A DNA stretch of 64,000 nucleotides from contig CAXXOA010000001.1 in assembly GCA_963666275.2 (NCBI GenBank), positions 2,464,001 to 2,528,000 of the forward strand, read 5' to 3'. Position 1 is the first letter of the stretch, and the number at the start of each line of letters is the position of its first letter. The translations under genes and the position numbers were made by a program. Source of the stretch: Oceanispirochaeta sp. (lineage in GTDB: Bacteria; Spirochaetota; Spirochaetia; DSM-2461). Under the pieces are notes generated by a model that saw only the letters and a list, made by a program, of their open reading frames with translations, was not told the origin of the DNA and ran no database searches. This document shows positions 5,366-57,725 of this stretch, in pieces.

Positions 5366-5881
5366 TCAATAATATGTGACTTCTATTGATTCAGTTGCGA
5401 ATCGGACCTTTGCCCAAATGTATGGATCTATATCTGATCCCATGACTTCCTCTATCTCATCTGATTTCCAGTAAAAGATCGTGCTTGTATCAATAGAAAT
5501 AGATGGTAAAATATTTGAATCGATAGGCGTAGAGACTGTTAACGAGACCTCCCCCCCTCCGTCAAAATACATATGTTCCTCAATAATCTGATACGACTGA
5601 TTTAAAGGCTTACCATCTACAAATATCAGATCTGATAACTTGACTGGTTGAGTCATATCAAAATCATAAAAATATTCATCAGAAGAATCTTTTTTTAAAT
5701 CAGTTGTATCAATATAATTTACATAAACAGATAAATCATATCCAACGGAAGTAACACTAGTAACATTCCACTCAATAATCTCCAATTCGTCCTCACTGGG
5801 ATAATCAAACTGTTGACAACTCAGAGTTAAAACTCCTGCGATAGCAAGTACTAACAGGTATCGGACCTTTTTACAGATCAT
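5366..5881 (-). CDS. Hypothetical lipoprotein (paralogue B, intact)
   Basis: Signal peptide with lipobox LTLSC; highly similar to 5902-6421. Confidence 0.8.
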   Translation of the reverse strand: MICKKVRYLLVLAIAGVLTLSCQQFDYPSEDELEIIEWNVTSVTSVGYDLSVYVNYIDTTDLKKDSSDEYFYDFDMTQPVKLSDLIFVDGKPLNQSYQIIEEHMYFDGGGEVSLTVSTPIDSNILPSISIDTSTIFYWKSDEIEEVMGSDIDPYIWAKVRFATESIEVTYY

Positions 5882-5901: not shown

Positions 5902-6421
5902 TTAATATGTGATTTCAAGTGATTCTGTTACAATTCGGACTTTTGCCCAGATATATGGATCTATATCGGGACTCCCAAATTCAGAGATTGCATATGATTT
6001 CCAATAGAAAATTGTATTTGTATCAAAATAAATAGATGTTACTGTAGCGGAATCCAAAGGAGTTGATGCATTGAGCGCCATCCACCCCCCCCCCGCTTGA
6101 TTGCATATATTCTTCATCAATCTGATAGGATTGGTTTAGAGGTTTGCCATCTACCAATACAAGATCCGACAACTTGACCGGTTGAGTCATTTCAAAATCA
6201 TAAAAATATTCATCTGATGCGTCTTTTTTAAGATCAGTCGTATTAGTATAATGAACAGTTACAACCAGACCGAGATGATCCGATGTCGTGTAAGCTTCAG
6301 TAACATTCCACTCAATAAGCTCCAATTCATCCTCACTGGGATAATCAAACTGTTGACAACTAAGAGTTAAAACTCCAGCGATAACAAGTACTAACAGGTA
6401 TCGGACCTTTCTGAATATCAT
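5902..6421 (-). pseudogene. Hypothetical lipoprotein (paralogue A), frameshifted at a G10 tract
   Basis: ORFs 6023-6421 and 5902-6120 match the N- and C-terminal parts of paralogue B. Removing one base from the C10 run at 6085-6094 gives one 172-aa ORF. Confidence 0.85.
6085..6094 (-). repeat. Homopolymer G10 (possible phase-variation tract)
   Basis: C10 on the + strand, exactly at the frameshift position. Confidence 0.85.
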
Positions 6422-10505: not shown

Positions 10506-11474
10506 TCAGATGCTTCTGGATTCGAGCATGGAAAACAGTGTCCTGAAAGCATCTGAAGAAGAGCTTTCGGGAAGATTATCCAGCAGTTCCAGAGCCTGCT
10601 TTTTAAAATCTTTGGCCGCATCATCGGCACTTGCGGCATACCCTCTGTTCACAATCCTTTTCCGGACTCCCGGAATAAAGGGACGTAAAAAAGGATGGGC
10701 GTCATAAAAAGTGACAACAGGATCTTTCTCTTCCAGTGCAAGGATCAGAGGGAGAGTGGGAATACCTTCCTTGAGATCCTTTCCTGTTTTCTTCCCGAGT
10801 TTCCCCGGTTTGCCGATATAGTCGAGAATATCATCCTCTACCTGAAAAGCCATTCCGAAGAGTGTACCCAGCTGGTAGAGTTTTTCCCTTATATCCTGTT
10901 CAGATCCAGTAGCTTGCGCTCCGGCCATACAGGCCAGACCGAAAAGTTCAGCTGTTTTTCCTTTGATTCGTTTTAAATAGGCTTCCCGGCCTATATTCAG
11001 CTGACTTCCATGAAAATCCTGATCAATCTCTCCCAGGCAGATGGTACTGATGCCATCGAGAAAGAGAGGGATCATTTCGGTATCACATTCAGGTGCGGCC
11101 ATTTTCATGGCCACAGACATAAGATAATCCCCTGCCAGAACCGCCCTTTTGATCCCCATAGTTTTATGGAGGGTCGGGACTCCTCTTCTGGTGGAAGCCT
11201 TATCAATAACATCATCGTGAATCAATGTGGCTATATGAAGGAGCTCCACCGAAGCGGCAACGGAAGCAATGTTTTCGTTCTCTTTTGTTCCCCACTGCGC
11301 TGAGAGGAGAACAAAAGCGGGACGGAGCATCTTTCCGTTGCTGAGCAGAAGCCGGGCCAGATCATCTCTGATCCCGGAAGGACTTTCATCCACTATCCCC
11401 CGGATATGTTTTTCCACATTTTCCAGGGGTGAGGCTAATGCCGGGAAGTCATTCCATAATGGATGCAGTGACAA
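10506..11474 (-). CDS. Long-chain polyprenyl diphosphate synthase (HepT/DmkB-like)
   Basis: GKMLRP, LIHDDVID (first Asp-rich motif), RRG, FQVEDDILD (second Asp-rich motif), GKDLKEG. Starts 1 bp after the ndh stop. Confidence 0.92.
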   Translation of the reverse strand: MSLHPLWNDFPALASPLENVEKHIRGIVDESPSGIRDDLARLLLSNGKMLRPAFVLLSAQWGTKENENIASVAASVELLHIATLIHDDVIDKASTRRGVPTLHKTMGIKRAVLAGDYLMSVAMKMAAPECDTEMIPLFLDGISTICLGEIDQDFHGSQLNIGREAYLKRIKGKTAELFGLACMAGAQATGSEQDIREKLYQLGTLFGMAFQVEDDILDYIGKPGKLGKKTGKDLKEGIPTLPLILALEEKDPVVTFYDAHPFLRPFIPGVRKRIVNRGYAASADDAAKDFKKQALELLDNLPESSSSDAFRTLFSMLESRSI

Positions 11475-11475
11475 A

Positions 11476-13473
11476 TTACCGGCTCCGTTTCTTACCCTTC
11501 AGTCTGGGTTCTCCAAAGTAAAGGTAGGTTTTATGAGCCAGAGATGTTCCGTTCCACCATTTTTTCAGCCAGGGCATTACCCAGTAGTCGAGACCGCAGT
11601 TTCTTCCGGCTCCACCGAGCATAATGACGGCGGCGAAAATAAACCACAGCTGAGCCCAGGTAAACATACCGGAAAGGATGAATACAAGACACATGATAAT
11701 GGACACACCCGCAGCGGGGAATGTGAACAGTCCGCCGATAAGAGCCAGACCGATAAGCATTTCCACAGAAACGATCATGACCTGGAAGAACTGGAAGGGC
11801 AGATAAGCCATCATGCCATCCATAAAAGTCTGACGGAACCAGGTTGAAACAACACCGTTGAAAGAGAAGATACTATTGGCAGTATCCCATACAGGTCCCC
11901 AGGTGTGAGCGGCTGCTGTTGTTACAGCTTCACCGGCACCGGATGCGGCACTGACAGTTTCTACAACAGCTTCAGCAGCACCTGATGCGGCACTTACGGT
12001 TTCAGCCGCGTACTCAACTACTGCTTCTGCGGCTTCAGACGCGGCGGAACCGGCATCAGCAGCTTTTTCAAGCCCTGCCTGAACAACGCCCTGAGAGAAC
12101 ATCCATGCGGAACTGGAACCTTTGTCAAAGTTAAACCAGCCTTCGCCGATTTTATTGATTCCTTCAAAGAGCCACATCAGACCAAGCCACAGCCTCAAGG
12201 GAAGGGCAAAAAGACCGTTGATTTTACCGGCTACCAGCCCCCCCAGGAAAGACCTGTTGTTTTTGATATCGAAGATTTCATGTTTGAGATATTTCCACCA
12301 GGCGTTCACACCGGCGACAGTACTCAGGTAATAAACATTCACAAGATGTTTCAGTGCCATGGCGGGCATACCGGACAGAGCGATGCCTCCGGTATAGGAC
12401 ACGGCGTAGCGTCCACCGATAGAAACCATGAATCCATGGAAGCTGGATTTGAAATGTTTCACTTCACCCTTTCCGGTAATGGCGTGAATAATATTCTTGG
12501 CCGCTACTGCAGCAGTCTGCTCCGCCGCCTCAACGATCTGGGGAAGGGGTCTTTCATTTTCAAGCAGCCACACCGCATCTCCTGCCAGATAGACGTTATC
12601 GTTATCCGGAGATTTCATTGTGTCGTCAACTCTCAGCCTGTCAACGTGACCGATGGTCATGCCGGTTTCGGCGGCAAAGGAACTTCCTTTGATACCGCAG
12701 GTCCAGATCAGGGTACCGCATTCGATAACGGTTCCGTCTTTCAGGGTAAGAGACCCTTCTTCGGCTTTGCTGATAAAGGAGTTCAGGACAAACTTGACGC
12801 CCTTCTTTTCCATGTATTTATGAGCTTTTGCACGGGGACCTTCGGGAATCATATTCAGGATATGGCCCAGACCCTCTACATTGATCAGCTCAACCTCATC
12901 CTCATCGATATCGTACTCTTTACAAAGGAGAGGAAGATTTTCGATCAGTTCTCCGATCATCTCTATACCTGTAAAACCGGCACCGGCCACAACAAAGGTC
13001 AGCAGTTTTTTTCTTTTTACAGGATCTTTCTCGTGGGTCGCCTTCTGAATCACATCAATGATGTGTTCCTGAATCTTGATGGCGTCTTCGTAGCTCCACA
13101 GAGACAGAGAGTTTTCTTTAACACCGGGAATACCGAAATCGGTAGCTTCCGCCCCTGTACCCATCAGAAGATAGTCGTACTCATAGGTTGCGGTATCAGA
13201 AACAAGCACCTGCTTCTCTCTGTCTATTGTTTTAATGGTGTCACGGACAATGTTTACTTTTTTACCGGCGAAGATTCTGTCAAAAGAGATCTTTACACAG
13301 CCGCGTCCTACTCTTTCACCAGCAATCTCGTGAAGTTCTGTCATCAGAGTATGATAATTGTTCTTATCAATAAGAGTGATCTCTACTCCGGAATCTTTTT
13401 TAAAGGCCTTGTGGAAGATTTTACCGGCATGAACACCGGCGTATCCACCACCCAGGATAACTATTTTTGTCAT
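11476..13473 (-). CDS. ndh: Type II NADH dehydrogenase with C-terminal DoxX-like membrane domain (Ndh2-like)
   Basis: GGGYAG and GAGFTGIE dinucleotide motifs, LAGD, PQIVEAAEQTA, then PLRLWLGLMWLFEGINK and EMLIGLALIGGLFT...GAGRNCGLDYWVMPWL membrane domain. ATG 13473 follows AAGGGG. Confidence 0.9.
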   Translation of the reverse strand: MTKIVILGGGYAGVHAGKIFHKAFKKDSGVEITLIDKNNYHTLMTELHEIAGERVGRGCVKISFDRIFAGKKVNIVRDTIKTIDREKQVLVSDTATYEYDYLLMGTGAEATDFGIPGVKENSLSLWSYEDAIKIQEHIIDVIQKATHEKDPVKRKKLLTFVVAGAGFTGIEMIGELIENLPLLCKEYDIDEDEVELINVEGLGHILNMIPEGPRAKAHKYMEKKGVKFVLNSFISKAEEGSLTLKDGTVIECGTLIWTCGIKGSSFAAETGMTIGHVDRLRVDDTMKSPDNDNVYLAGDAVWLLENERPLPQIVEAAEQTAAVAAKNIIHAITGKGEVKHFKSSFHGFMVSIGGRYAVSYTGGIALSGMPAMALKHLVNVYYLSTVAGVNAWWKYLKHEIFDIKNNRSFLGGLVAGKINGLFALPLRLWLGLMWLFEGINKIGEGWFNFDKGSSSAWMFSQGVVQAGLEKAADAGSAASEAAEAVVEYAAETVSAASGAAEAVVETVSAASGAGEAVTTAAAHTWGPVWDTANSIFSFNGVVSTWFRQTFMDGMMAYLPFQFFQVMIVSVEMLIGLALIGGLFTFPAAGVSIIMCLVFILSGMFTWAQLWFIFAAVIMLGGAGRNCGLDYWVMPWLKKWWNGTSLAHKTYLYFGEPRLKGKKRSR
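11909..12066 (-). repeat. Intragenic Ala/Ser-rich repeats in ndh (DAGSAAS, ETVSAAS x2)
   Basis: AADAGSAASEAAEAVVEYAAETVSAASGAAEAVVETVSAASGAGEAVTTAA; two near-identical DNA units 42 nt apart. Confidence 0.85.
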
Positions 13474-13680
13474 GAGTTTCCCCTTCATGGAATGAATATT
13501 TTTATATCGCTCTAATCTTATCGAATACTATAATATTTTGTGTCAATGAATCAATCAAGTAATAGTCACTCTTATTCAAAAAAAATCGTACTTTTTTAGT
13601 ATCCTTCCTGCTGAATTCTAAAAATCAGACCTTTCAGCAGCTATGCTGTTCGGGGTTTTTTTGCCGATCCTCCATTTCTG

Positions 13681-13749
13681 AGACCAATAAAACCAAAAAG
13701 CCCAATATAGCAAGAAAGATTGCCTATCTGTCAGAGATCGGGCTAAGTT
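13681..13749 (+). promoter_or_regulatory. Three 9-bp-period direct repeats upstream of a weak sigma70 promoter (candidate response-regulator sites)
   Basis: AGACCAAT-A-AAACCAAA-A-AGCCCAAT (13681-13706), then TTGCCT-N18-TAAGTT. Confidence 0.55.
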
Positions 13750-13796
13750 TTATTCGATATTTTTTTAACCATTATTTTCATACAAGGAGGGTCTTA

Positions 13797-15518
13797 ATGA
13801 TCCGTTTTAAAAGATTTACAGGCATTGTTCTGTTAATGATGCTCTTTTTTATCGGGTGCTCAGGCAAAGCAGTATACAATGCCGGCACCTACACTGGCGA
13901 AGGAGAAGGTCACGGAGGAACTATTGCTGTTTCGGTAACTGTAGATGACAAAGCTATCAAGTCTATTGAAGTGATCGAAAACCATGAGTCCGATTTCAGC
14001 CTCGGCCCCATTCAGACACTGATTAAAAAGGCCATCGACGCCAACAGCGGCGATATCGATGCCGTCAGCGGTGCCTCAGAAACTTCTGCAGGCATGATTG
14101 CCGCCATACAGGCAGCCCTGGCAAAGGCAGCTACCGGAAACGCTTCAACAGCTGCCGTATCAGCTTCTGAAGCTGTCACACTGAAAGATGAAACCACTGA
14201 TATTGTTGTCATCGGTGCCGGCGGTGCCGGTCTCTCCGCAGCCAAAGCGGCGGCGGACAAAGGGGCTGATGTCATTGTGCTTGAAAAAATGGCTTTTGTC
14301 GGTGGTAACACCAACTATGCCACCGGCGGTCTCAATGCGGCGGAAACAAAACAGCAGGCGGAAAAAGGAATCGAAGATTCGATCGAACAGTTTTTCAATG
14401 ACACTATGAAAGGCGGAAAAAATCTGAACAACCCCGACCTGGTTCGTGTACTGACATCCCGGTCCCGGGAGTCCGTGGAATGGCTGACTTCCCTGGGTGC
14501 GGATCTGAGCGATGTGGGAAGAATGGGCGGATCTACAAACAACAGAACCCACCGCCCCACCGGCGGTGCCGGCGTGGGTGCCCATGTTGTGAGCGTTCTG
14601 GATGCTGCGGCTTCCCAGGTTGCCGATATCAGAACTGAAAGCAGAGTGATTGCCATTACAGCTGATGCCAATGGTGTCAACGGTGTGGATGTGGAAACTC
14701 CCGAAGGAACCTACCATATCAGCGCCGGGGCTGTTATCATCGCAACCGGAGGATTCGGCGCCAGCCAGGAGAAAGTTGTTAAATACAAACCCGAACTGAA
14801 AGGCTTCGGCACAACCAACCAGCCCGGAGCCACCGGTGATGCCCTGGATCTAGTAGCCCCTCTGAACGTGGCTCTGGTCGATATTGAGCAGATCCAGACC
14901 CATCCCACTGTTGTTCCCGTTAAAAACAAGATGATTACCGAAGCGGTCAGAGGAAACGGTGCTATTCTTGTCAACAGAGACGCCAGAAGATTTGTATCGG
15001 AACTGCAGACAAGGGATGTGGTTTCTGAAGCGGAACTGGAACAGGAAGGACAGACCGCATTCCTCCTTTTCGACCAGGGAATCAGAGAGTCCCTCTCTGC
15101 CATTGAAAAATACGCCAAAGCCGGTCTGCTCACAGAAGCGGCGTCTCTGGAAGAGCTGGCGGAAACCATGGGGCTGAATGGGGAGACTCTGGTTGAAACA
15201 GTCAATACCTACAACAGCTATGTGGATCAGGGAAGCGATCCTGACTTTGATCGCCCCGACATGCCCAGAAAAGTGGCAACCGGCCCCTTCTATATGGTGG
15301 AAGTCGGTCCTGCGGTTCACCATACCATGGGCGGTCTGAAAATCGACACGGAAACAAGAGTGATCGATACGGACGGCAACTGGGTTACCGGACTCTATGC
15401 GGCCGGTGAAGTGACCGGCGGTGTTCACGGAGCCAACAGGCTCGGTGGAAATGCCGTGGCCGATATCACGACTTTTGGAAGGATCGCCGGAGAACAGGCG
15501 GCATCTTTTATCCAATAA
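13797..15518 (+). CDS. Lipoprotein flavocytochrome-c-type fumarate reductase with N-terminal FMN-binding domain
   Basis: Lipobox FIGC; FMN-bind domain (GTYTGEGEGHGG...DIDAVSGAS); FAD motif VIGAGGAG; Fcc3-type catalytic set QTHPT, TEAVRG, ELQTRD, VHHTMGG, GANRLGG. Confidence 0.9.
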   Translation: MIRFKRFTGIVLLMMLFFIGCSGKAVYNAGTYTGEGEGHGGTIAVSVTVDDKAIKSIEVIENHESDFSLGPIQTLIKKAIDANSGDIDAVSGASETSAGMIAAIQAALAKAATGNASTAAVSASEAVTLKDETTDIVVIGAGGAGLSAAKAAADKGADVIVLEKMAFVGGNTNYATGGLNAAETKQQAEKGIEDSIEQFFNDTMKGGKNLNNPDLVRVLTSRSRESVEWLTSLGADLSDVGRMGGSTNNRTHRPTGGAGVGAHVVSVLDAAASQVADIRTESRVIAITADANGVNGVDVETPEGTYHISAGAVIIATGGFGASQEKVVKYKPELKGFGTTNQPGATGDALDLVAPLNVALVDIEQIQTHPTVVPVKNKMITEAVRGNGAILVNRDARRFVSELQTRDVVSEAELEQEGQTAFLLFDQGIRESLSAIEKYAKAGLLTEAASLEELAETMGLNGETLVETVNTYNSYVDQGSDPDFDRPDMPRKVATGPFYMVEVGPAVHHTMGGLKIDTETRVIDTDGNWVTGLYAAGEVTGGVHGANRLGGNAVADITTFGRIAGEQAASFIQ

Positions 15519-15548: not shown

Positions 15549-15590
15549 TCAGCGGATTCTCCACAGGGGAATCCGCTGATTTTTTCTTTT
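15549..15590 (+). terminator. Intrinsic terminator
   Basis: TCAGCGGATTC...GAATCCGCTGA followed by a T-run. Confidence 0.85.
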
Positions 15591-15613
15591 CCCCGTATTA
15601 TACTCTATGACTC

Positions 15614-17188
15614 ATGAAACTGAACCGTAAGATCTCTCTTACAGCCGGAATCTTCACAACCTCAATCCTTCTGCTGCTGGGATTCCTTGTCATTCAGCAG
15701 TGGTTCAGTACACTTCTCCATCAACTGGAACTCACAGCACGGGATACGGCTTATGCCATATCGGAAATGGAAGTTGTCAGAGAAAACCTTGTAAAATCCA
15801 ACGGTAGCATCCCCATCCAGAGGCGCATGGAGGAGATCCGCCTCTCCACCCGGATTCAGTACATCTATGTACTGGACAGACAGGGCGTTTTCTATGCCCA
15901 CACCATACCGGGAAGTATCGGAACAAAAGGGAGCGATCCCTTTTACCTGAAACTGCTTCAGAGCGACGCCCCCCGGACTCTTGTCAGAAGAGTCGGCAGA
16001 GCCCGGCTGACCTCGGTTGAAGCGGCCGCTCCGGTTTATTATCAGGGAGAACTGGCGGGACTCGTTGTGACGGGAGTTCTCAATGGCAGGGTGTACCAGG
16101 AGATCAGTCTGAATATTCAGACATTCGCCCTGATTATGATCCTGGCTGTTTTCATAAGCCTCTACTCCTCCCAATACCTCTCATCCAGTATAAAAAGATC
16201 CATGCAGGGGCTGGAGCCGGAAGAGATCTCGCGCCTTCTCGGTCAGAGGGCCATGACCCTGGACAACCTGAAAGAAGCTATTGTCACCGTCGATCAGTCC
16301 GCCGGGATCATCTATTTCAATACATCCGCGAAAAAACTGATCGGGCTGGGTGAACAGGACCTGGACAGACCTGTTGAGTATTTCTTTTTCGGGGAATCCT
16401 TTATTAAATGCCTTTCCGAGAAGAGAACCCTGGAAAGGGAGTTGAAAACTCCCGGAGGGATGACCCTTCAGTGCCGCATAGAACCCATATGGGATCCCCA
16501 GAGCCAGGATGTTCTCGGGGCCACAGCAGTTATGGAGGACATGACTACGGTCAGACTGAAAGCAGAGGAACTGACGGGAATAAAGCAGATCAACGAAGGC
16601 CTGCGGGCCCAGAATCATGAGTTCCTGAACAAGCTCCATACTATAGCCGGACTGATCCAGCTGGAAGAGTATGACCAGGCGGTCCATTACATCACAGGAA
16701 TCAGCCGGAACCGCCGGGAAATTACCGCTCAACTGAGCGACAGGATCAAAGATCCCGCCGTCGCAGGACTTCTTCTGGGAAAATACAACAAAGCCCAGGA
16801 ACAGAAAACGGCTTTTCTGCTGGATGAAAAATCTTTCCTTTCTGCAGGAACAGAGGAGTCCGAAACGATTAATCTGATTCTGGGGAATCTTATAGAGAAC
16901 GCCCTGGAAGAGCTCCGGGGAAAGGATCAGGGAGAGATAAGGATCAGCCTCTACGAAAAACCGGGATGCCTTATGATCCAGGTGGGAGATAATGGCGGCG
17001 GCATAGCCGAACCGGACTATGTATTTATCAGAGGGAACAGCACAAGAGGGGAGAACAGAGGCCTGGGACTCTTCCTTGTGAGGCAGAAAACCCAAAGCCT
17101 CGGGGGAGAGATAAAACTGCAGTCCCGCCCGGGAGAAACAGTTTTCACCGTGACTCTGCCTGTGCGGCCCGGAAGGGAGGAATCATGA
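15614..17188 (+). CDS. CitA/DcuS/DctS-family sensor histidine kinase
   Basis: Two TM helices around an sCache domain, GLEPEEI, PAS domain, LRAQNHEFLNKLHTIAGL H-box, ILGNLIENA, DNGGGI, RGLGL. Confidence 0.93.
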   Translation: MKLNRKISLTAGIFTTSILLLLGFLVIQQWFSTLLHQLELTARDTAYAISEMEVVRENLVKSNGSIPIQRRMEEIRLSTRIQYIYVLDRQGVFYAHTIPGSIGTKGSDPFYLKLLQSDAPRTLVRRVGRARLTSVEAAAPVYYQGELAGLVVTGVLNGRVYQEISLNIQTFALIMILAVFISLYSSQYLSSSIKRSMQGLEPEEISRLLGQRAMTLDNLKEAIVTVDQSAGIIYFNTSAKKLIGLGEQDLDRPVEYFFFGESFIKCLSEKRTLERELKTPGGMTLQCRIEPIWDPQSQDVLGATAVMEDMTTVRLKAEELTGIKQINEGLRAQNHEFLNKLHTIAGLIQLEEYDQAVHYITGISRNRREITAQLSDRIKDPAVAGLLLGKYNKAQEQKTAFLLDEKSFLSAGTEESETINLILGNLIENALEELRGKDQGEIRISLYEKPGCLMIQVGDNGGGIAEPDYVFIRGNSTRGENRGLGLFLVRQKTQSLGGEIKLQSRPGETVFTVTLPVRPGREES

Positions 17189-17874
17189 GGATACTGATTG
17201 TAGAAGACGACCCTATGGTAGGTCAGATCAACAGCCGTTTTGCCGGTAAAATTCCCTTTGTCACTCAGGTGGATGTAGTGACAAGCCCCGCTGAGGCAGA
17301 GACATTCCTGGAGGAGAACTCCTGTGATCTGCTGCTCCTTGATGTGTACTTCCCCGACGGGAGAGGACCGGAGCTGCTGAAGTGGATCCGTAACAGGGAG
17401 ATCCCGGTACAGGTCATTTTCATTACCGCAGACAACAGCCAGGAGACTGTGGAAAAGGCTTTTCACCTGGGCGCACTGGACTACCTTGTGAAACCCTTCA
17501 CTTTCGACAGATTCAGAAAAGCCATTGAAGAAGCAAGAGACAGGATTGCCAAACTGAGCGGCACGGGAAAGTTTGACCAGGACAGACTGGATCATTTCAT
17601 TTACGGCGAAGTTCCGGAGGAGAGAGCCCTGGAGGAACCCTTTGTCCTGGACAAGGGCATGAGCTACAAAACCTATGAAATGGTACGGCGGAAAATAGAG
17701 CAGACAAAAGGGGCTTTTACGGCAGATGAAATGGGAGAGGCCCTGGGAATTGCCAGAGTCACCATACGGCGCTATCTGGACTTTATGGAAAAACAGGAGA
17801 TACTGGAAGTGAATCTCCAGTATGGAAAAATCGGCAGACCCCAGCACTATTACAGACTGAAAGGATCGGAATGA
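17185..17874 (+). CDS. CitB/DcuR/DctR-family response regulator
   Basis: VEDDPMV, LLLDVYFPD, ITA, DYLVKPF, ARVTIRRYLDF, YGKIGRP. Confidence 0.93.
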   Translation: MRILIVEDDPMVGQINSRFAGKIPFVTQVDVVTSPAEAETFLEENSCDLLLLDVYFPDGRGPELLKWIRNREIPVQVIFITADNSQETVEKAFHLGALDYLVKPFTFDRFRKAIEEARDRIAKLSGTGKFDQDRLDHFIYGEVPEERALEEPFVLDKGMSYKTYEMVRRKIEQTKGAFTADEMGEALGIARVTIRRYLDFMEKQEILEVNLQYGKIGRPQHYYRLKGSE

Positions 17875-19259
17875 AAATACTGACAGGCCTTTTTACAGCT
17901 GTGATTCTTCTCTTTGCTCTGATTGTCTCTCCCATGTATATTTCCGAAAAAACAGATGTGGTGATCATCGGAGCCGGCGCCGCGGGGATGCGGGCGGCCC
18001 TGGAGAGCAGAGAACACACACAGAAGGTGATTCTCCTTGAAAAAATGCCCTACCCCGGCGGAAACAGCAACAGAGCGACGGCCGGACTGAATGCCCTCCC
18101 CTTTCCTGATGACAGGGACGCCTTCTTCCGGGATACCAGAGAGGCCGGCCTGAATCACGGCGATCCGGATCTTGTCAGGATACTGGTAGACAGAAGCGGA
18201 GAGGAACTGGGCTGGCTCCGCAGCATTGGGGCGGACCTTTCGGATCTCGGGCTTCTGGCCGGCCACAGCAGAAACCGGACCTACAGGCCCTCGGGAGGCC
18301 TGCCTGTCGGCCGGGAGATCAGCTCTGTTCTTTTTGACAATATCCGGAAAAGAGGCATGGACCTGAGACTGGAAAACCGAGCCCTCTCTCTGGAATACAA
18401 GGGGAAGAATATCCTTGTGACTGTTGAGAACAGGAGCGGCCGGGAGTACCGTATCAAAGCCCGGTCGGTTGTGATTGCCACAGGCGGTTTCGGTGGAAAT
18501 CCCAGGCTTGTCACAAGGGTAAACCCCGCTCTAAAGGGGTTTAACACAACCAACAGCGCCGGCGCCACGGGAGATTTCCTGGAATTAACAGAAAAACTGG
18601 ACCCTCTGCTGGTGGATCTCGGCGAAATCCAGACCCATCCGACTGTGGAACCTGATTTCAGCATCCTCATCACCGAAGCCCTCCGGGGAAACGGCGGGAT
18701 ACTGATCAACAGCAAAGGGCAGCGCTTTACCAATGAAATGGCCTTCCGGGAGGCCCTGAGCCGGAGCATCCTCTCCCAGAAAGGGGGAACGGCCTGGCTG
18801 ATTTTTGATCAGGAGATCCGAAACAGTCTCAAGTCTTCGGAGTACTATTTTCAGAGAGAACTGGTGCGTTCAGGCAGTTCCCTGGCGGAACTGACGGAAA
18901 CACTCTCCCTGCCTCCTCTGATGCTGGAAAAGGAAATAGCCCTCTGGAACCGGATTGTCCTTCAGGGAGAAGAGGATCCCTACGGCAGACAAGACCTTTT
19001 CCGCCCCCTGAACAGCCCACCCTACTATGCGATAAAAGTGACTCCCGGCATCCATTACTGCATGGGAGGACTGGGAATAGACACGAAATCGCGGGTTCTG
19101 GACCGGACAGGAACTCCTCTCCCCGGTCTCTTCGCAGCAGGCGAGGCCACAGGGGGCATACACGGCCGGGACAGGCTGGGAGGCAATTCTCTGACAGATA
19201 CCATGGTATTCGGCAGGATCGCCGGTTACGAAGCGGCTCTTTACAGTCAAAGCCGCTAG
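17871..19259 (+). CDS. Second flavocytochrome-c/fumarate-reductase-like flavoprotein, N-terminal membrane anchor, no FMN-binding domain
   Basis: Hydrophobic N-terminus without a lipobox Cys; IIGAGAAG, QTHPT, TEALRG, EMAFRE, IHYCMGG, GRDRLGG. ATGA overlap with the response regulator. Confidence 0.88.
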   Translation: MKILTGLFTAVILLFALIVSPMYISEKTDVVIIGAGAAGMRAALESREHTQKVILLEKMPYPGGNSNRATAGLNALPFPDDRDAFFRDTREAGLNHGDPDLVRILVDRSGEELGWLRSIGADLSDLGLLAGHSRNRTYRPSGGLPVGREISSVLFDNIRKRGMDLRLENRALSLEYKGKNILVTVENRSGREYRIKARSVVIATGGFGGNPRLVTRVNPALKGFNTTNSAGATGDFLELTEKLDPLLVDLGEIQTHPTVEPDFSILITEALRGNGGILINSKGQRFTNEMAFREALSRSILSQKGGTAWLIFDQEIRNSLKSSEYYFQRELVRSGSSLAELTETLSLPPLMLEKEIALWNRIVLQGEEDPYGRQDLFRPLNSPPYYAIKVTPGIHYCMGGLGIDTKSRVLDRTGTPLPGLFAAGEATGGIHGRDRLGGNSLTDTMVFGRIAGYEAALYSQSR

Positions 19260-19262
19260 GTT

Positions 19263-20981
19263 CTACCGGGACCTGAGGAGATCCACAATATCCGGATGCC
19301 CCTGAGCTGCGGCAAAATCTTCCGCCCGGTTTCCCCTCTGATCCTTCAATCTCGCATCAGCGCCCGCCTCCAGAAGAATCCCGACGGTTCCTGCAAATCC
19401 CCTGGCAGCGGCTTTCATCAGGGGAGTGATCCCCTGAAAGTCCGCTCGATCGGGATCAGAGAGAGATCCCAGAACCAGCGAAAGGCTCCGGGGATCCGGC
19501 TCCTCCCACCCTGATGCCATAAGATAGAGGGGGGACTCCCCTTTTCCGTTCAGAGCGTCCACATCAGCACCCGTGGCGATCAGAAGCTCCAGTGCTTCCA
19601 GAGGGGCTCTGTTCCTCGCTGCCCAGTGAAAGGCGGTCCATCCGTCCTGATCCGCCAGATTCGGGTCGGATCCGGCGGCCAGGAGCTGCCGGAATATGGA
19701 GCTGGATCCGGACCAGGCCGCCACATGAAGGGCGGTCCATCCTTCGGGAGTCCTGTAAAAAGGATCCGCTCCGCCGACCAGAAGAGCCCCTACCATATCT
19801 GGAAAACTGCAGGCGGCAGCCTTCATCAGGGGGGACCAGGAGTTTTCATCCTCTGCGTTTATATCTGCTCCTGCCTCCACAAGTCGGGTGATCATCACCG
19901 TATCCTCTCCCCACCGGGCTGTTTCATGAAGACTGAGATTCAGATCCGAATGAGGAACCGCGTCGGCAGGATACACCCGGCGGGACAGGGCACGGAGGCC
20001 CGCCGGGTCCAGGGGCAGATCCCGGGAGGCGAGATATTCCCTGAAATAGGAATCCAGGGGGCGTCCCAGACCGTCCCGGACCCTTCCGTCCTCCAGAAAT
20101 CGGCTCAGGTATTCCACAACCTTCGGGGTATTGTTCCAGTGAAGGGCCGCCATGAGGGGTATCCAGCCATCCTTGTCAGGCCCCGAAGGAGACGCCCCTC
20201 TGTCAATGAGAAAGCGGATCATTGACAGATCCTGTCTGTAGGCGGCGCTCCACAGAAGCAGGGAGGAGCCGTAACTGTCCCGGCTGTTAATACCCATCCC
20301 CTGATCCAGAAGAACCTGCACGGCGTCCGCTCCTCCTCCGAAAAGGACCGTATAGAACAGGGCATTCCACCCGTCAAAATCCCGGGCTTCCGGATCGGCC
20401 CCATAGGCCAGGAGGAGCTTCATTTTCCGCGGGCCCTCTTCCAGAGAGCCCGCCCTCATAAGGGGAGTGATCCCGTAGGGTTCGGTAAGTTCCGTCTCCG
20501 CCCCTCTGGAAAGGAGCAGTTCCGTGGCTCCGGGAGAGTGGTAGACACACCTTGTCAGGAGAGGCACCCCTTCCGGATCGATCATATCGGGGGAGTATCC
20601 CTGATCCAGGAGGATTTCAAGGAGAGGAAGGGCCTTCTCCTCCTGATGGGTCAGAGCAAAAAAAGGCATATAGCGGTTAAACTGCTCCAGCCCCTGCTGA
20701 AAGGCTTGCCCTTCGGGAACATATCCCAGCAGAAGCTCCAGAATCTGAGGATGCCCCCCGATCACTGCCAGATGGCAGGACGAGAGGCCCTCATCATTGA
20801 GAAGAAGAGGGTCTGCTCCCTCCTCAAGCGCCTCCCGGAGGATATCCATCCGGGGAGTACGGCCTGTAAACAGAGCCAGTTCCCCGAACAGAACAGACTG
20901 GGGATCTTCTGTTACCGAAGCGGGTTCTGCCTGAAGGGGCAGCAGGGGCAGTAAAAAGAGGAGATAAAAAAAACCTTTCAT
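19263..20981 (-). CDS. Exported ankyrin-repeat protein
   Basis: Signal peptide (LPLQA-E) and many G-x-T/P-L-x-x-A...LL..GAD.N repeats. Confidence 0.9.
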   Translation of the reverse strand: MKGFFYLLFLLPLLPLQAEPASVTEDPQSVLFGELALFTGRTPRMDILREALEEGADPLLLNDEGLSSCHLAVIGGHPQILELLLGYVPEGQAFQQGLEQFNRYMPFFALTHQEEKALPLLEILLDQGYSPDMIDPEGVPLLTRCVYHSPGATELLLSRGAETELTEPYGITPLMRAGSLEEGPRKMKLLLAYGADPEARDFDGWNALFYTVLFGGGADAVQVLLDQGMGINSRDSYGSSLLLWSAAYRQDLSMIRFLIDRGASPSGPDKDGWIPLMAALHWNNTPKVVEYLSRFLEDGRVRDGLGRPLDSYFREYLASRDLPLDPAGLRALSRRVYPADAVPHSDLNLSLHETARWGEDTVMITRLVEAGADINAEDENSWSPLMKAAACSFPDMVGALLVGGADPFYRTPEGWTALHVAAWSGSSSIFRQLLAAGSDPNLADQDGWTAFHWAARNRAPLEALELLIATGADVDALNGKGESPLYLMASGWEEPDPRSLSLVLGSLSDPDRADFQGITPLMKAAARGFAGTVGILLEAGADARLKDQRGNRAEDFAAAQGHPDIVDLLRSR

Positions 20982-56120: not shown

Positions 56121-56174
56121 TGAGACATCCGGATCAAAATGTTTCTTGGTAATCGCTATTTTTTTATAGATAAT
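56121..56174 (+). promoter_or_regulatory. Palindromic operator abutting a sigma70 promoter
   Basis: GAGACAT-N10-ATGTTTC (56122-56145) directly followed by TTGGTA-N17-GATAAT. Confidence 0.6.
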
Positions 56175-56207
56175 AGTTTAATTGAATACATAAAACAGGA
56201 GATTACA

Positions 56208-57725
56208 ATGATATCCAGAAGAGAATTTATCAAGGCTGCGGCTGCCGGAGCGGTAGGTGCCACAGCTCTGGGGGTTCTGGGCGGATGTTCCAGAAAATCA
56301 ACAGAAGTCAATTTTGACAGAGAAACGGAAGTTCTGGTTGTGGGAGCCGGTGGAGCCGGTATGGCCGCGGCAGCACAGGCGGCAGCTGATGGAGCACAAG
56401 TTCTTGTACTTGAAAAGGCCGGTCTTGTGGGTGGAACAACAAACTACTCGGGCGGCGTTATGCAGGCTGCGGGAACTTCGGTCCAGAAAGAGTTCTCCTC
56501 CTACCAGAATGACACCCCCGAAAACCACTATAAACTCTGGACAGCCTCGGGTGAGGGATATATTGACGAAGAGCTCGTCAAAGACCTGGCCTACGGGGCC
56601 CCCGAACATATCGACTGGCTCACAGATCTGGGTCTAAAATGGACCAGCGTCTACGGTCACTGTCATGTCCCCTACATAGATGATGCGCTTTATGCCGACA
56701 GGATCCATGTATACGAAGGAGGCGGCGGCGAAGGCGGCGGAGTCATTCTGGTTCAAGCTCTTCTGAAAGCGGCAGAAGCGTCCGGTGCGGTTGTGGAAGT
56801 TGACAGCGAAGCCACCGAACTGGTCCTCAATGAACAGCAGGAAGTTGTGGGAATCATCGCTCTGCAGGAGGGTAAAGAGGTGGCTATCAAAGCCTCCAGG
56901 GGTGTGATCCTGGCAGCCGGATCCATCGATAAAAACGTGAAAATGGCCAAACAGCTGAGCCCCCAGCAGTACTGGGATCTGACCTCTCAGATCTGCCTTT
57001 GCGCCGAAACTGATACAGGAGACGGTATTAAAATGGCATCCGCCGCAGGCGCTGCCATTGGCGGATTCGGCGGAACCATCGACTTCTGCGGAAAAACCGG
57101 AGCGGCCACTAGCAACAAATTCCCCATGTTCCCCTATTTTATAGTCAATACAAAAGGGCTGCGCTTTGTCTGTGAAGATGCCACCTATGCCTATCATTAC
57201 CGTGCGATCTTCCAGCAGGAAACTCAGCTGCAGGGCCCCACCTACATGATATTCGGTCAGTCCAGCCTGAGCAGTCCCGTTACGAGATGGACCCCTGAGT
57301 CGCTGAAAAAAGACATTGCCGACGGGGTTGTCATTGCCGGAGATTCCATTGAGGAACTGGCGAGTAAGATCGGTGTACCCGCGGAAAATCTGTCCCGCAC
57401 ACTGTCCGTCTGGAATGAAAATGCCCGGAAAGGGACAGACCCCGAGTACGATCGAAATACGGGAATCGAACCTTTGAGCGGCCCCTTCTATGCCTATAAA
57501 AATGTCTCCTTCAACCTGGGAGCCATTGGCGGTGTCACCATAAACACCAACTGCCAGGTACTGAAGCCCAACGGAGAGGTTCTGCCCCGGCTCTATGCGA
57601 GCGGCCTGAATGCAGGGGGCTGGATAGGCCCCTACTACCCCGGTTCGGGAACAGCCATTATGGGTCTGATTCACTGGGGTAGAAAAGCCGGTTCCCATGC
57701 GGCGGCTCTGGAAAGCCTTAGCTGA
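56208..57725 (+). CDS. Tat-exported lipoprotein FAD-dependent oxidoreductase (FAD_binding_2, non-fumarate subtype)
   Basis: SRREFIK twin-arginine motif, lipobox LGGC, VVGAGGAG, GGTTNYSGG, RFVCED, LGAIGG, GPYYPGSG. Lacks the HPT/HHTMGG/NRLGG fumarate set. Confidence 0.88.
   Translation: MISRREFIKAAAAGAVGATALGVLGGCSRKSTEVNFDRETEVLVVGAGGAGMAAAAQAAADGAQVLVLEKAGLVGGTTNYSGGVMQAAGTSVQKEFSSYQNDTPENHYKLWTASGEGYIDEELVKDLAYGAPEHIDWLTDLGLKWTSVYGHCHVPYIDDALYADRIHVYEGGGGEGGGVILVQALLKAAEASGAVVEVDSEATELVLNEQQEVVGIIALQEGKEVAIKASRGVILAAGSIDKNVKMAKQLSPQQYWDLTSQICLCAETDTGDGIKMASAAGAAIGGFGGTIDFCGKTGAATSNKFPMFPYFIVNTKGLRFVCEDATYAYHYRAIFQQETQLQGPTYMIFGQSSLSSPVTRWTPESLKKDIADGVVIAGDSIEELASKIGVPAENLSRTLSVWNENARKGTDPEYDRNTGIEPLSGPFYAYKNVSFNLGAIGGVTINTNCQVLKPNGEVLPRLYASGLNAGGWIGPYYPGSGTAIMGLIHWGRKAGSHAAALESLS

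Follow-up and report, generated by a model that had tools for sequence, protein, structure and literature searches.

We analysed a 64,000-nucleotide stretch of an Oceanispirochaeta sp. genome (assembly GCA_963666275.2, contig CAXXOA010000001.1, positions 2,464,001 to 2,528,000; hereafter the window), in which the genes for a fumarate reductase (frdA), a sensor histidine kinase, a response regulator and a second flavoprotein, here called p3, follow one another on the + strand. An intrinsic terminator separates frdA from the other three genes, and both the kinase/regulator and the regulator/p3 junctions are ATGA overlaps. An earlier note on this DNA, made from the letters alone, had described such a chain of kinase, regulator and second flavoprotein behind the terminator of the main reductase; our coordinates, both junctions and the hairpin at 15549-15579 agree with it. 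The features of the locus, in window coordinates, are as follows (FMN, flavin mononucleotide; FAD, flavin adenine dinucleotide; TM, transmembrane segment).

13682..13708, + strand: three tandem 9-bp repeats GA(C/A)CAAWAA, predicted response-regulator site
13720..13748, + strand: candidate frdA -35/-10 elements (TTGCCT, 17 nt, TAAGTT), weak, placed by position next to the repeats and absent from the consensus-scan list
13754..13771, + strand: TYGATA-W6-TATCRA, a palindrome of 18 bp at which a global redox repressor is predicted to bind
13797..15518, + strand: frdA, lipoprotein with an FMN domain bearing the flavinylation motif DAVSGAS and a fumarate-reductase domain (Pfam FMN_bind and FAD_binding_2; TIGR01813 over cut-off), predicted regulated target
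15549..15579, + strand: intrinsic terminator between frdA and the regulatory operon, 14-bp hairpin (8 G-C pairs) and T-run
15599..15604, + strand: TATACT, putative -10 element of the kinase-regulator-p3 operon
15614..17188, + strand: kinase of the CitA/DcuS family, 524 aa; TM1, sCache_3_2 (F93, H96, E136), TM2, PAS, SpoOB-type DHp (H335), HATPase (Pfam)
17185..17874, + strand: DcuR/CitB-type response regulator, 229 aa, D53 (Pfam Response_reg and HTH_64)
17871..19259, + strand: p3, 462 aa, membrane-anchored FAD fumarate-reductase-domain protein without an electron-entry domain, proposed co-sensor

The sensor domain of the kinase

The kinase has the full CitA/DcuS architecture by Pfam (TM-sCache_3_2-TM-PAS-SpoOB-type DHp-HATPase, with a DcuR/CitB-type regulator alongside) and was the sole member of the family detected in this genome by tblastn. 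It shares with E. coli DcuS/DcuR the domain order, the DHp, the regulator type and the predicted control of fumarate respiration, and differs from it in carrying F and E in place of R107 and R147 and in falling short of the NCBIfam cut-offs (328 vs 520; 143 vs 262 bits). The best NCBIfam model, scoring under its cut-off, is that of the DcuS/MalK family, and in the kinase tree our kinase lies among members that keep the arginines.

The loss of both carboxylate-binding arginines (R107 to F, R147 to E) had been claimed in the earlier note and is borne out by alignments to CitA and DcuS structures, which give F93 and E136. In Geobacillus CitA (8BGB), the counterparts of the sensor segments VFYAHT and TSVEAAAPV are RYAHP and AIRG; in 8BIY, Ala stands at the first Arg. 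The DcuS segments LRYSHP and QALRVFTPI were confirmed in 3BY8 by way of an Arg-keeping relative, with the two arginines 40 residues apart as are R107 and R147. F93 is thus equivalent to R107, E136 to R147 and H96 to H110, the last being kept. R107, H110 and R147 are named as the C4-dicarboxylate pocket of DcuS in the portion of PMC12772337 available to us; with F93, H96 and E136 in their place, the kinase does not have the pocket of a DcuS-type direct C4-dicarboxylate sensor.

The loops that would cage a ligand are likewise poorly conserved, residues 100-134 being 20% identical among p3-linked kinases, compared to 44% among Arg-keeping kinases and 68% in the sister clade described below; the flanking framework segments of the domain are 41-58% identical. 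The H/N/D/G catalytic boxes are invariant in 23/23 cassette kinases, as are D8, D9, D53, T81 and K103 of the regulator in 23/23 cassettes. The pocket has decayed in a kinase that is still under selection. A fold search with the kinase returned generic kinases only, and an Atlas search returned sCache_3_2 clusters only.

Arginine state and gene context

We classed 151 distinct kinases of the family, having left out those whose alignment is gapped at one or both Arg positions and those whose length falls outside 460-640 aa. The 26 kinases beside p3 (group A, including locus L013, whose third gene is p3) have neither Arg in any case. Another 36 (group B) lie directly behind a small FMN-binding protein and have lost the first Arg, replaced the His by Tyr and kept the second Arg. 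Both arginines are kept in 12/12 kinases followed by an ordinary split FrdA without p3 (group C). The remaining 77 comprise 58 with both arginines, 4 with one and 15 distant kinases with neither. In a tree of 98 rows, groups A and B each formed one clade (support 99) and were sisters (support 98), nested among the Arg-keeping kinases.

The FMN_bind protein of group B, directly upstream of the kinase, carries a flavinylation motif and mostly a lipobox, and often lies in NADH-dehydrogenase or menaquinone loci. The pocket in this group is strongly conserved but altered (Q/K/T, Tyr, Arg). In L232, L236 and L242 the NADH-dehydrogenase gene is preceded by weakly scoring repeat boxes (12-17; see below). 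The pair of FMN protein and kinase is a candidate redox sensor of the electron-export chain. Loci of the group are as follows.

Sister-clade (group B) loci: L232-L242, L299-L309, L311, L055, L057, L062, L101, L102, L108, L110

Some kinases of the family are only 359-364 aa long and have neither TM1 nor any part of the sensor domain (L243:2034-3113, L244:5033-6127 and L189; genomes G272, G180 and G441). In two widely fetched loci such kinases lie directly after groEL, and their hosts are small-genome spirochaetes without a close reductase match.

The second flavoprotein

Pfam assigns FAD_binding_2 alone to p3, and FMN_bind in addition to frdA. The protein scores 406 bits against TIGR01813 (cut-off 285) and aligns without gaps with Shewanella flavocytochrome c3 (Fcc3) across the active-site half at an offset of 109, its H256, T268, E269, R272, R293, H395 and R435 corresponding to H365, T377, E378, R381, R402, H504 and R544; the modelled fold has a TM-score of 0.91 to Fcc3 (1KSU). 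We take the seven residues to be catalytic, and titles in the PDB show their mutation in Fcc3. By family model, fold and residues, p3 thus has the catalytic domain of the flavocytochrome c/soluble fumarate reductases, and since all seven residues are kept in 26/26 p3 proteins, we ruled out a pseudoenzyme.

The Fcc3 alignment and Pfam also uphold the earlier claim that p3 keeps the FAD site and the dicarboxylate residues and has no FMN or haem domain. An electron-entry module of either kind was found neither fused to p3 nor beside it; no FMN-domain gene lies within 1.5 kb downstream of p3 in the 24/24 loci with room for one, and the FMN domain of FrdA, encoded elsewhere, may serve as donor. The split FrdA subunits of group C have an FMN-domain gene wherever the flank is visible. 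The absence is real but is not by itself diagnostic of p3, since many reductases are split, their FMN domain being encoded by a gene of its own.

Residues 1-26 of p3 are hydrophobic, with a helix at 2-23 in the model, and the N-termini of p3 proteins start with basic residues, which give way to a hydrophobic stretch and then to a mostly acidic one; no lipobox was seen by eye, whereas FrdA and the split subunits are lipoproteins. Hydropathy and charge suggest with fair confidence that p3 is oriented N-in/C-out and lies outside the membrane. It differs from the Listeria FrdA type, which frdA at 13797-15518 fits fully as a flavinylated extracytosolic fumarate reductase, and from Fcc3, which it resembles in fold and catalytic residues. 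It lacks an FMN or haem domain as well as a partner FMN gene, carries a transmembrane anchor where a lipobox would be expected, and is encoded inside a regulator operon.

A recent duplication of the neighbouring frdA was rejected as the source of p3, at 46% identity and with p3 outside the clade of FMN-fused enzymes (support 99) to which frdA belongs. The p3 proteins form one clade with 99-100% support and drift faster than FrdA (mean identity 54% vs 69% over 23 matched loci). Their specific fixed residues include H132, G209, L296, Y396 and S440; Arg68/Ala71 were discarded as marks since they also occur in ordinary split reductases. Identity to split-type subunits (47.7% vs 46.1%) only suggests descent from them, the fork being left unresolved by a quick tree. 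Because p3 occupies the gene position that the regulated split-type catalytic subunit has in Arg-keeping relatives, we consider it a probable captured subunit: an old split-type target of the regulator would have become part of the regulator operon, giving up its promoter gap, its lipobox and its FMN partner. Databases name p3 merely 'flavocytochrome c' or 'fumarate reductase flavoprotein subunit', labels that hide the kinase-p3 pattern.

Linkage of the kinase and p3

The order frdA-kinase-regulator-p3 was recovered in 9/9 relatives holding an orthologous kinase, out of 40 relatives searched, which argues that the arrangement is not due to chance; those close relatives that bear a name belong to Oceanispirochaeta. 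Scanning with the p3 alignment gave 79 loci, 14 with the p3 signature. Twelve of these have kinase and regulator directly upstream; in another the regulator stands at the edge of the contig, and the last starts inside the gene. They include Fusibacter, Acidaminobacteraceae, Eubacteriales and Proteiniclasticum, and the cassette thus occurs in two phyla, Spirochaetota and Bacillota.

Paired whole-genome searches were made in both directions, from kinase to p3 and from p3 to kinase, on genome sets that are samples. Among 301 genomes of the order of genome G041, 10 had the kinase type and the same 10 had p3 (one cut by contig ends); among the other genomes of the set, without p3, 50 had other kinases of the family and 31 had ordinary reductases. 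Both kinase type and p3 were found only in the present genome (G000) among 401 Spirochaetota genomes, and only in G043 among 189 scored of 201 Clostridiaceae genomes, 12 being unscored in each Clostridiaceae search. The kinase searches classified the best 30 loci of 65 matches in the G041 order and the best 30 of 60 in Clostridiaceae. Ordinary reductases without p3 were present in 31, 23 and 23 genomes of the three sets. Nowhere among the genomes and loci searched did an intact kinase of the clade stand without p3. The earlier note had suggested a survey of Arg-less kinases with a trailing flavoprotein and had named a lack of conserved linkage among the findings that would refute it; in each genome set searched, the kinase goes with p3 and p3 with the kinase. 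Mirror-tree partial correlations over 23 loci were 0.37 for p3 and sensor, 0.07 for p3 and cytoplasmic kinase and 0.24 for FrdA and sensor, values that we do not count as evidence since the pairs are non-independent.

Regulatory sites and operon structure

The triple repeat precedes frdA in 21/23 cassettes, the misses being one contig start and one partial site, and a weight matrix of the repeat found a single site scoring at least 17 in the 5.27-Mb genome, that at 13682-13708. The same repeat precedes FrdA in 12/12 group C loci, which were outside the training set, with scores of 22-36. Groups A and C therefore appear to share regulator output and target type and to differ in input, p3 in the one and two arginines in the other.

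The palindrome lies downstream of the repeat. With up to 2 mismatches it was found in 21/23 cassette upstream regions, compared to 34/2200 shuffles, and it precedes 9/12 flavin-reductase genes of this genome and one of three Rex-type genes. We presume it to be a Rex or Rex-like site, and its distribution indicates that it marks a global reductase regulon. There are 78 such sites genome-wide (up to 2 mismatches), among them those at G000 C1:30012, 671026, 2179560 and 2477754 and C2:55634, 768582, 1067018, 1280376, 2119596 and 283881.

Neither element precedes p3. No repeat box was found within 300 nt upstream of p3 (best score 12.4, 25 loci) or of the kinase gene (best 5.6, 24 loci), and the palindrome is absent before p3. 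TATACT or TATAAT lies upstream of the kinase gene in 9/9 close spirochaete relatives. By eye, p3 overlaps the regulator stop codon or lies within about 10 nt of it in 24/25 loci, compared to a gap of 92-291 nt in 11 measured control loci, and by this spacing p3 appears to be translationally coupled to the regulator. Having no operator sites, being coupled to the regulator and belonging to an operon with its own predicted, conserved -10 element behind the terminator, p3 is laid out as one would expect for part of a sensing system rather than for an inducible enzyme.

Proposed role of p3 and alternatives

We propose, with a probability of roughly 0.6, that p3 acts outside the cytoplasm as the receptor through which the kinase senses fumarate or redox state. 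A promoter of their own would drive joint, basal production of kinase, regulator and p3, and p3, as its charge distribution suggests, would be anchored N-in/C-out beside the outer domain of the kinase. Fumarate would enter the intact active site of p3, and closure of the capping domain or oxidation of the FAD would be passed on to the outer domain of the kinase, which, its own pocket lost, would act as a docking and transmission surface. The kinase would phosphorylate the regulator, which would act at the triple repeat and induce the flavinylated frdA, bulk respiration being left to FrdA; a separate global repressor would act at the palindrome. The sequence case for action of the regulator on frdA is strong, and that for contact and signalling between p3 and the kinase is moderate. 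If p3 is the receptor, substrate-driven sensing is the somewhat likelier form, because global redox control seems to have its own operator, with pure redox sensing a serious contender.

The co-receptor claim of the earlier note is partly supported by the conserved linkage, by an Arg loss that tracks p3 and by Arg-keeping kinases that lack p3 on the same promoter type; the co-occurrence is that of one clade. The decayed cage loops, the lack of operator sites before p3 and the sister clade, which also lost the first Arg and lies directly behind a different outer flavoprotein, speak for it as well. Several points weigh against the receptor proposal. The 26 p3-linked kinases form one clade, as do the p3 proteins, so that Arg loss and p3 gain may have been one event, and the counts are not independent trials. 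None of the 15 distant Arg-less kinases of the family (at most 299 bits) shows p3, although the flank of 3 was too short for a verdict; the loss of the arginines can thus be met in other ways. The pocket keeps H96 and E136 (or Q), a conservation that would also suit another ligand. The full catalytic set of p3 in 26/26 bears no mark of slowness, its topology rests on hydropathy and charge with no topology predictor, and several genomes counted in the set of the G041 order also contributed rows to the search alignments.

The catalytic set, together with the fold, also fits the view that p3 is a basal second reductase, a retained ancestral split-type catalytic subunit for which free flavin or the FrdA FMN domain would be the electron donor. 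The kinase would then get its signal from another source, for example the quinone pool, a transporter or FrdA through its flavinylated domain. The gene position of p3 is that of the split FrdA in the control loci, reductases without FMN are common according to the accessible text of PMC8238504, transporters co-regulate with E. coli DcuS in that of PMC8307970, and the sister kinases pair with FMN-domain proteins. This view leaves unexplained why p3 never occurs without this kinase, with 31, 23 and 23 genomes having ordinary reductases and no p3, and why p3 has left operator control, lost its FMN partner and drifted faster than FrdA; we regard it as unlikely.

We find it improbable that the kinase directly binds a different small ligand, cationic or neutral, through its aromatic/His/Glu set, p3 being the converter that makes the ligand or a mere fellow traveller. 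Position 93 is aromatic in 24/26 p3-linked kinases, H96 is kept in 24/26 and position 136 is E or Q in 26/26 (L013 included), and the modelled sensor fold is intact. However, no part of the domain is less conserved than the loops that would close the pocket. The predicted target, a reductase of the fumarate type, is under the same operator as in the carboxylate-binding controls, and the succinate given by fumarate reduction would not be expected to bind in a Glu-bearing pocket. That p3 is a slowly decaying passenger held by operon structure, beside a constitutive, signal-blind kinase, would accord with the faster evolution of p3 and the sensor domain compared to FrdA and with the sensor-less kinases of three spirochaete genomes. 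It is very hard to square with an intact p3 whose active-site residues are invariant across two phyla at about 50% identity, or with the lack of any p3 loss beside an intact clade kinase, and we give it little credence.

Relation to known systems

A receptor role for p3 would most likely make the locus work like the regulatory [NiFe] hydrogenase HoxBC/HoxJ/HoxA of Ralstonia eutropha, in which an enzyme paralogue with a working active site is the substrate sensor of a histidine kinase. In the text of PMC5665086 and PMC6978683 open to us, HoxBC is an active but slow paralogue bound to HoxJ that switches on the working enzymes when substrate is present. The comparison is by analogy: HoxBC/HoxJ is cytoplasmic, metal-based and gas-sensing, with an unrelated kinase and regulator, whereas here an outer FAD enzyme is proposed for a membrane kinase with a decayed pocket, and there is no homology. 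The earlier note had compared p3 with DctB of B. subtilis, the membrane-attached accessory C4-dicarboxylate receptor that DctS needs (PMC6978683, in the part seen, citing Graf 2014). The likeness holds in principle, a CitA-family kinase with a membrane-attached accessory receptor; HoxBC-HoxJ is the closer analogue. DctB is a solute-binding protein and the DctS/DctR-DctB-DctA system also needs a transporter, whereas the accessory candidate here is an oxidoreductase; genes for a solute-binding protein or dicarboxylate transporter are absent from the cassette here and in 9 relatives, cassettes being all that was searched for such partners. The locus has the genetic tie of accessory gene to kinase found in accessory-receptor systems, and the pocket residues suggest that the kinase cannot sense alone; it belongs to neither the HoxBC-HoxJ nor the DctS-DctB systems.

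Reductase genes often adjoin two-component systems, as stated in the accessible text of bioRxiv 10.1101/2022.12.26.521950. Searches for kinase, two-component and regulator terms in the available text of the flavinylation surveys PMC8238504 and PMC10979944 found no such system, and term searches in the available text of PMC8534201, PMC5457438, PMC8307970 and the same preprint found nothing beyond this neighbourhood of reductases and two-component systems. The earlier remark that no description of the arrangement was known accords with our finding none of frdA-kinase-regulator-p3 in the literature searched, supplements and most subscription papers being outside its reach. The cassette is real and conserved and apparently undescribed, with sensing through an accessory protein and a sister variant with a flavinylated protein as its suggested themes.

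More tentatively, and at slightly worse than even odds, a branch of the CitA family may have handed sensing to outer flavoproteins of the electron-export chain, with 26 kinases in two phyla reading a captured fumarate reductase and their 36 sisters in Clostridia reading a small flavinylated protein. These would be the first sensors to report the substrate or redox state of an electron-export chain across the membrane. In anaerobes whose respiration runs through flavinylated outer reductases, the detection of electron acceptors is little understood. The locus is a compact, testable unit in this respect: it joins a kinase and its regulator to a candidate receptor, has an operator that is unique in the genome, and has Arg-keeping relatives as natural controls. 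If p3 is the receptor, it would be a traceable case of a regulated enzyme turned receptor of its own regulator, and a second, unrelated case of the regulatory-hydrogenase principle, outside the membrane; should the active sites of enzymes be usable as plug-in receptors, sensor specificities could be drawn from the large family of flavin reductases.

Neighbouring genes and other observations

Two genes lie divergent from frdA.

10506..11474, - strand: polyprenyl synthetase (PF00348, E 2e-61)
11476..13488, - strand: type II NADH dehydrogenase with a C-terminal membrane (DoxX-like) domain (Pfam Pyr_redox_2 and DoxX)

The NADH dehydrogenase, which adjoins the cassette in 3/9 relatives, is the likely electron source for the reductase, judging from the definition of extracellular electron transfer in the available text of PMC8238504. 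The polyprenyl synthetase is a context gene for the quinone side chain of the electron-export chain. ApbE is encoded in the genome, and the surroundings are those of a flavin-based electron-export locus. An outer low-complexity loop of the NADH dehydrogenase carries three flavinylation-like motifs (DAGSAAS, and ETVSAAS twice), and one to three such motifs occur in 10/10 fetched long copies, two of the ten being one gene; by these motifs the loop is a possible ApbE target.

An ankyrin-repeat protein with a signal-like N-terminus (19263-20981, - strand) is convergent on p3 across a 3-nt gap and is placed outside the cassette because it is adjacent in only 1/9 relatives. A 528-aa open reading frame at 56139-57725 (+ strand), with a twin-arginine-like N-terminus (SRREFIK) and a weak reductase-family match, is a further flavoprotein paralogue excluded from the genome's count of 12 flavin-reductase genes. 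Two tandem, near-duplicate lipoprotein-like reading frames lie at 5366-5881 and 6023-6421 (- strand), the second seemingly shortened.

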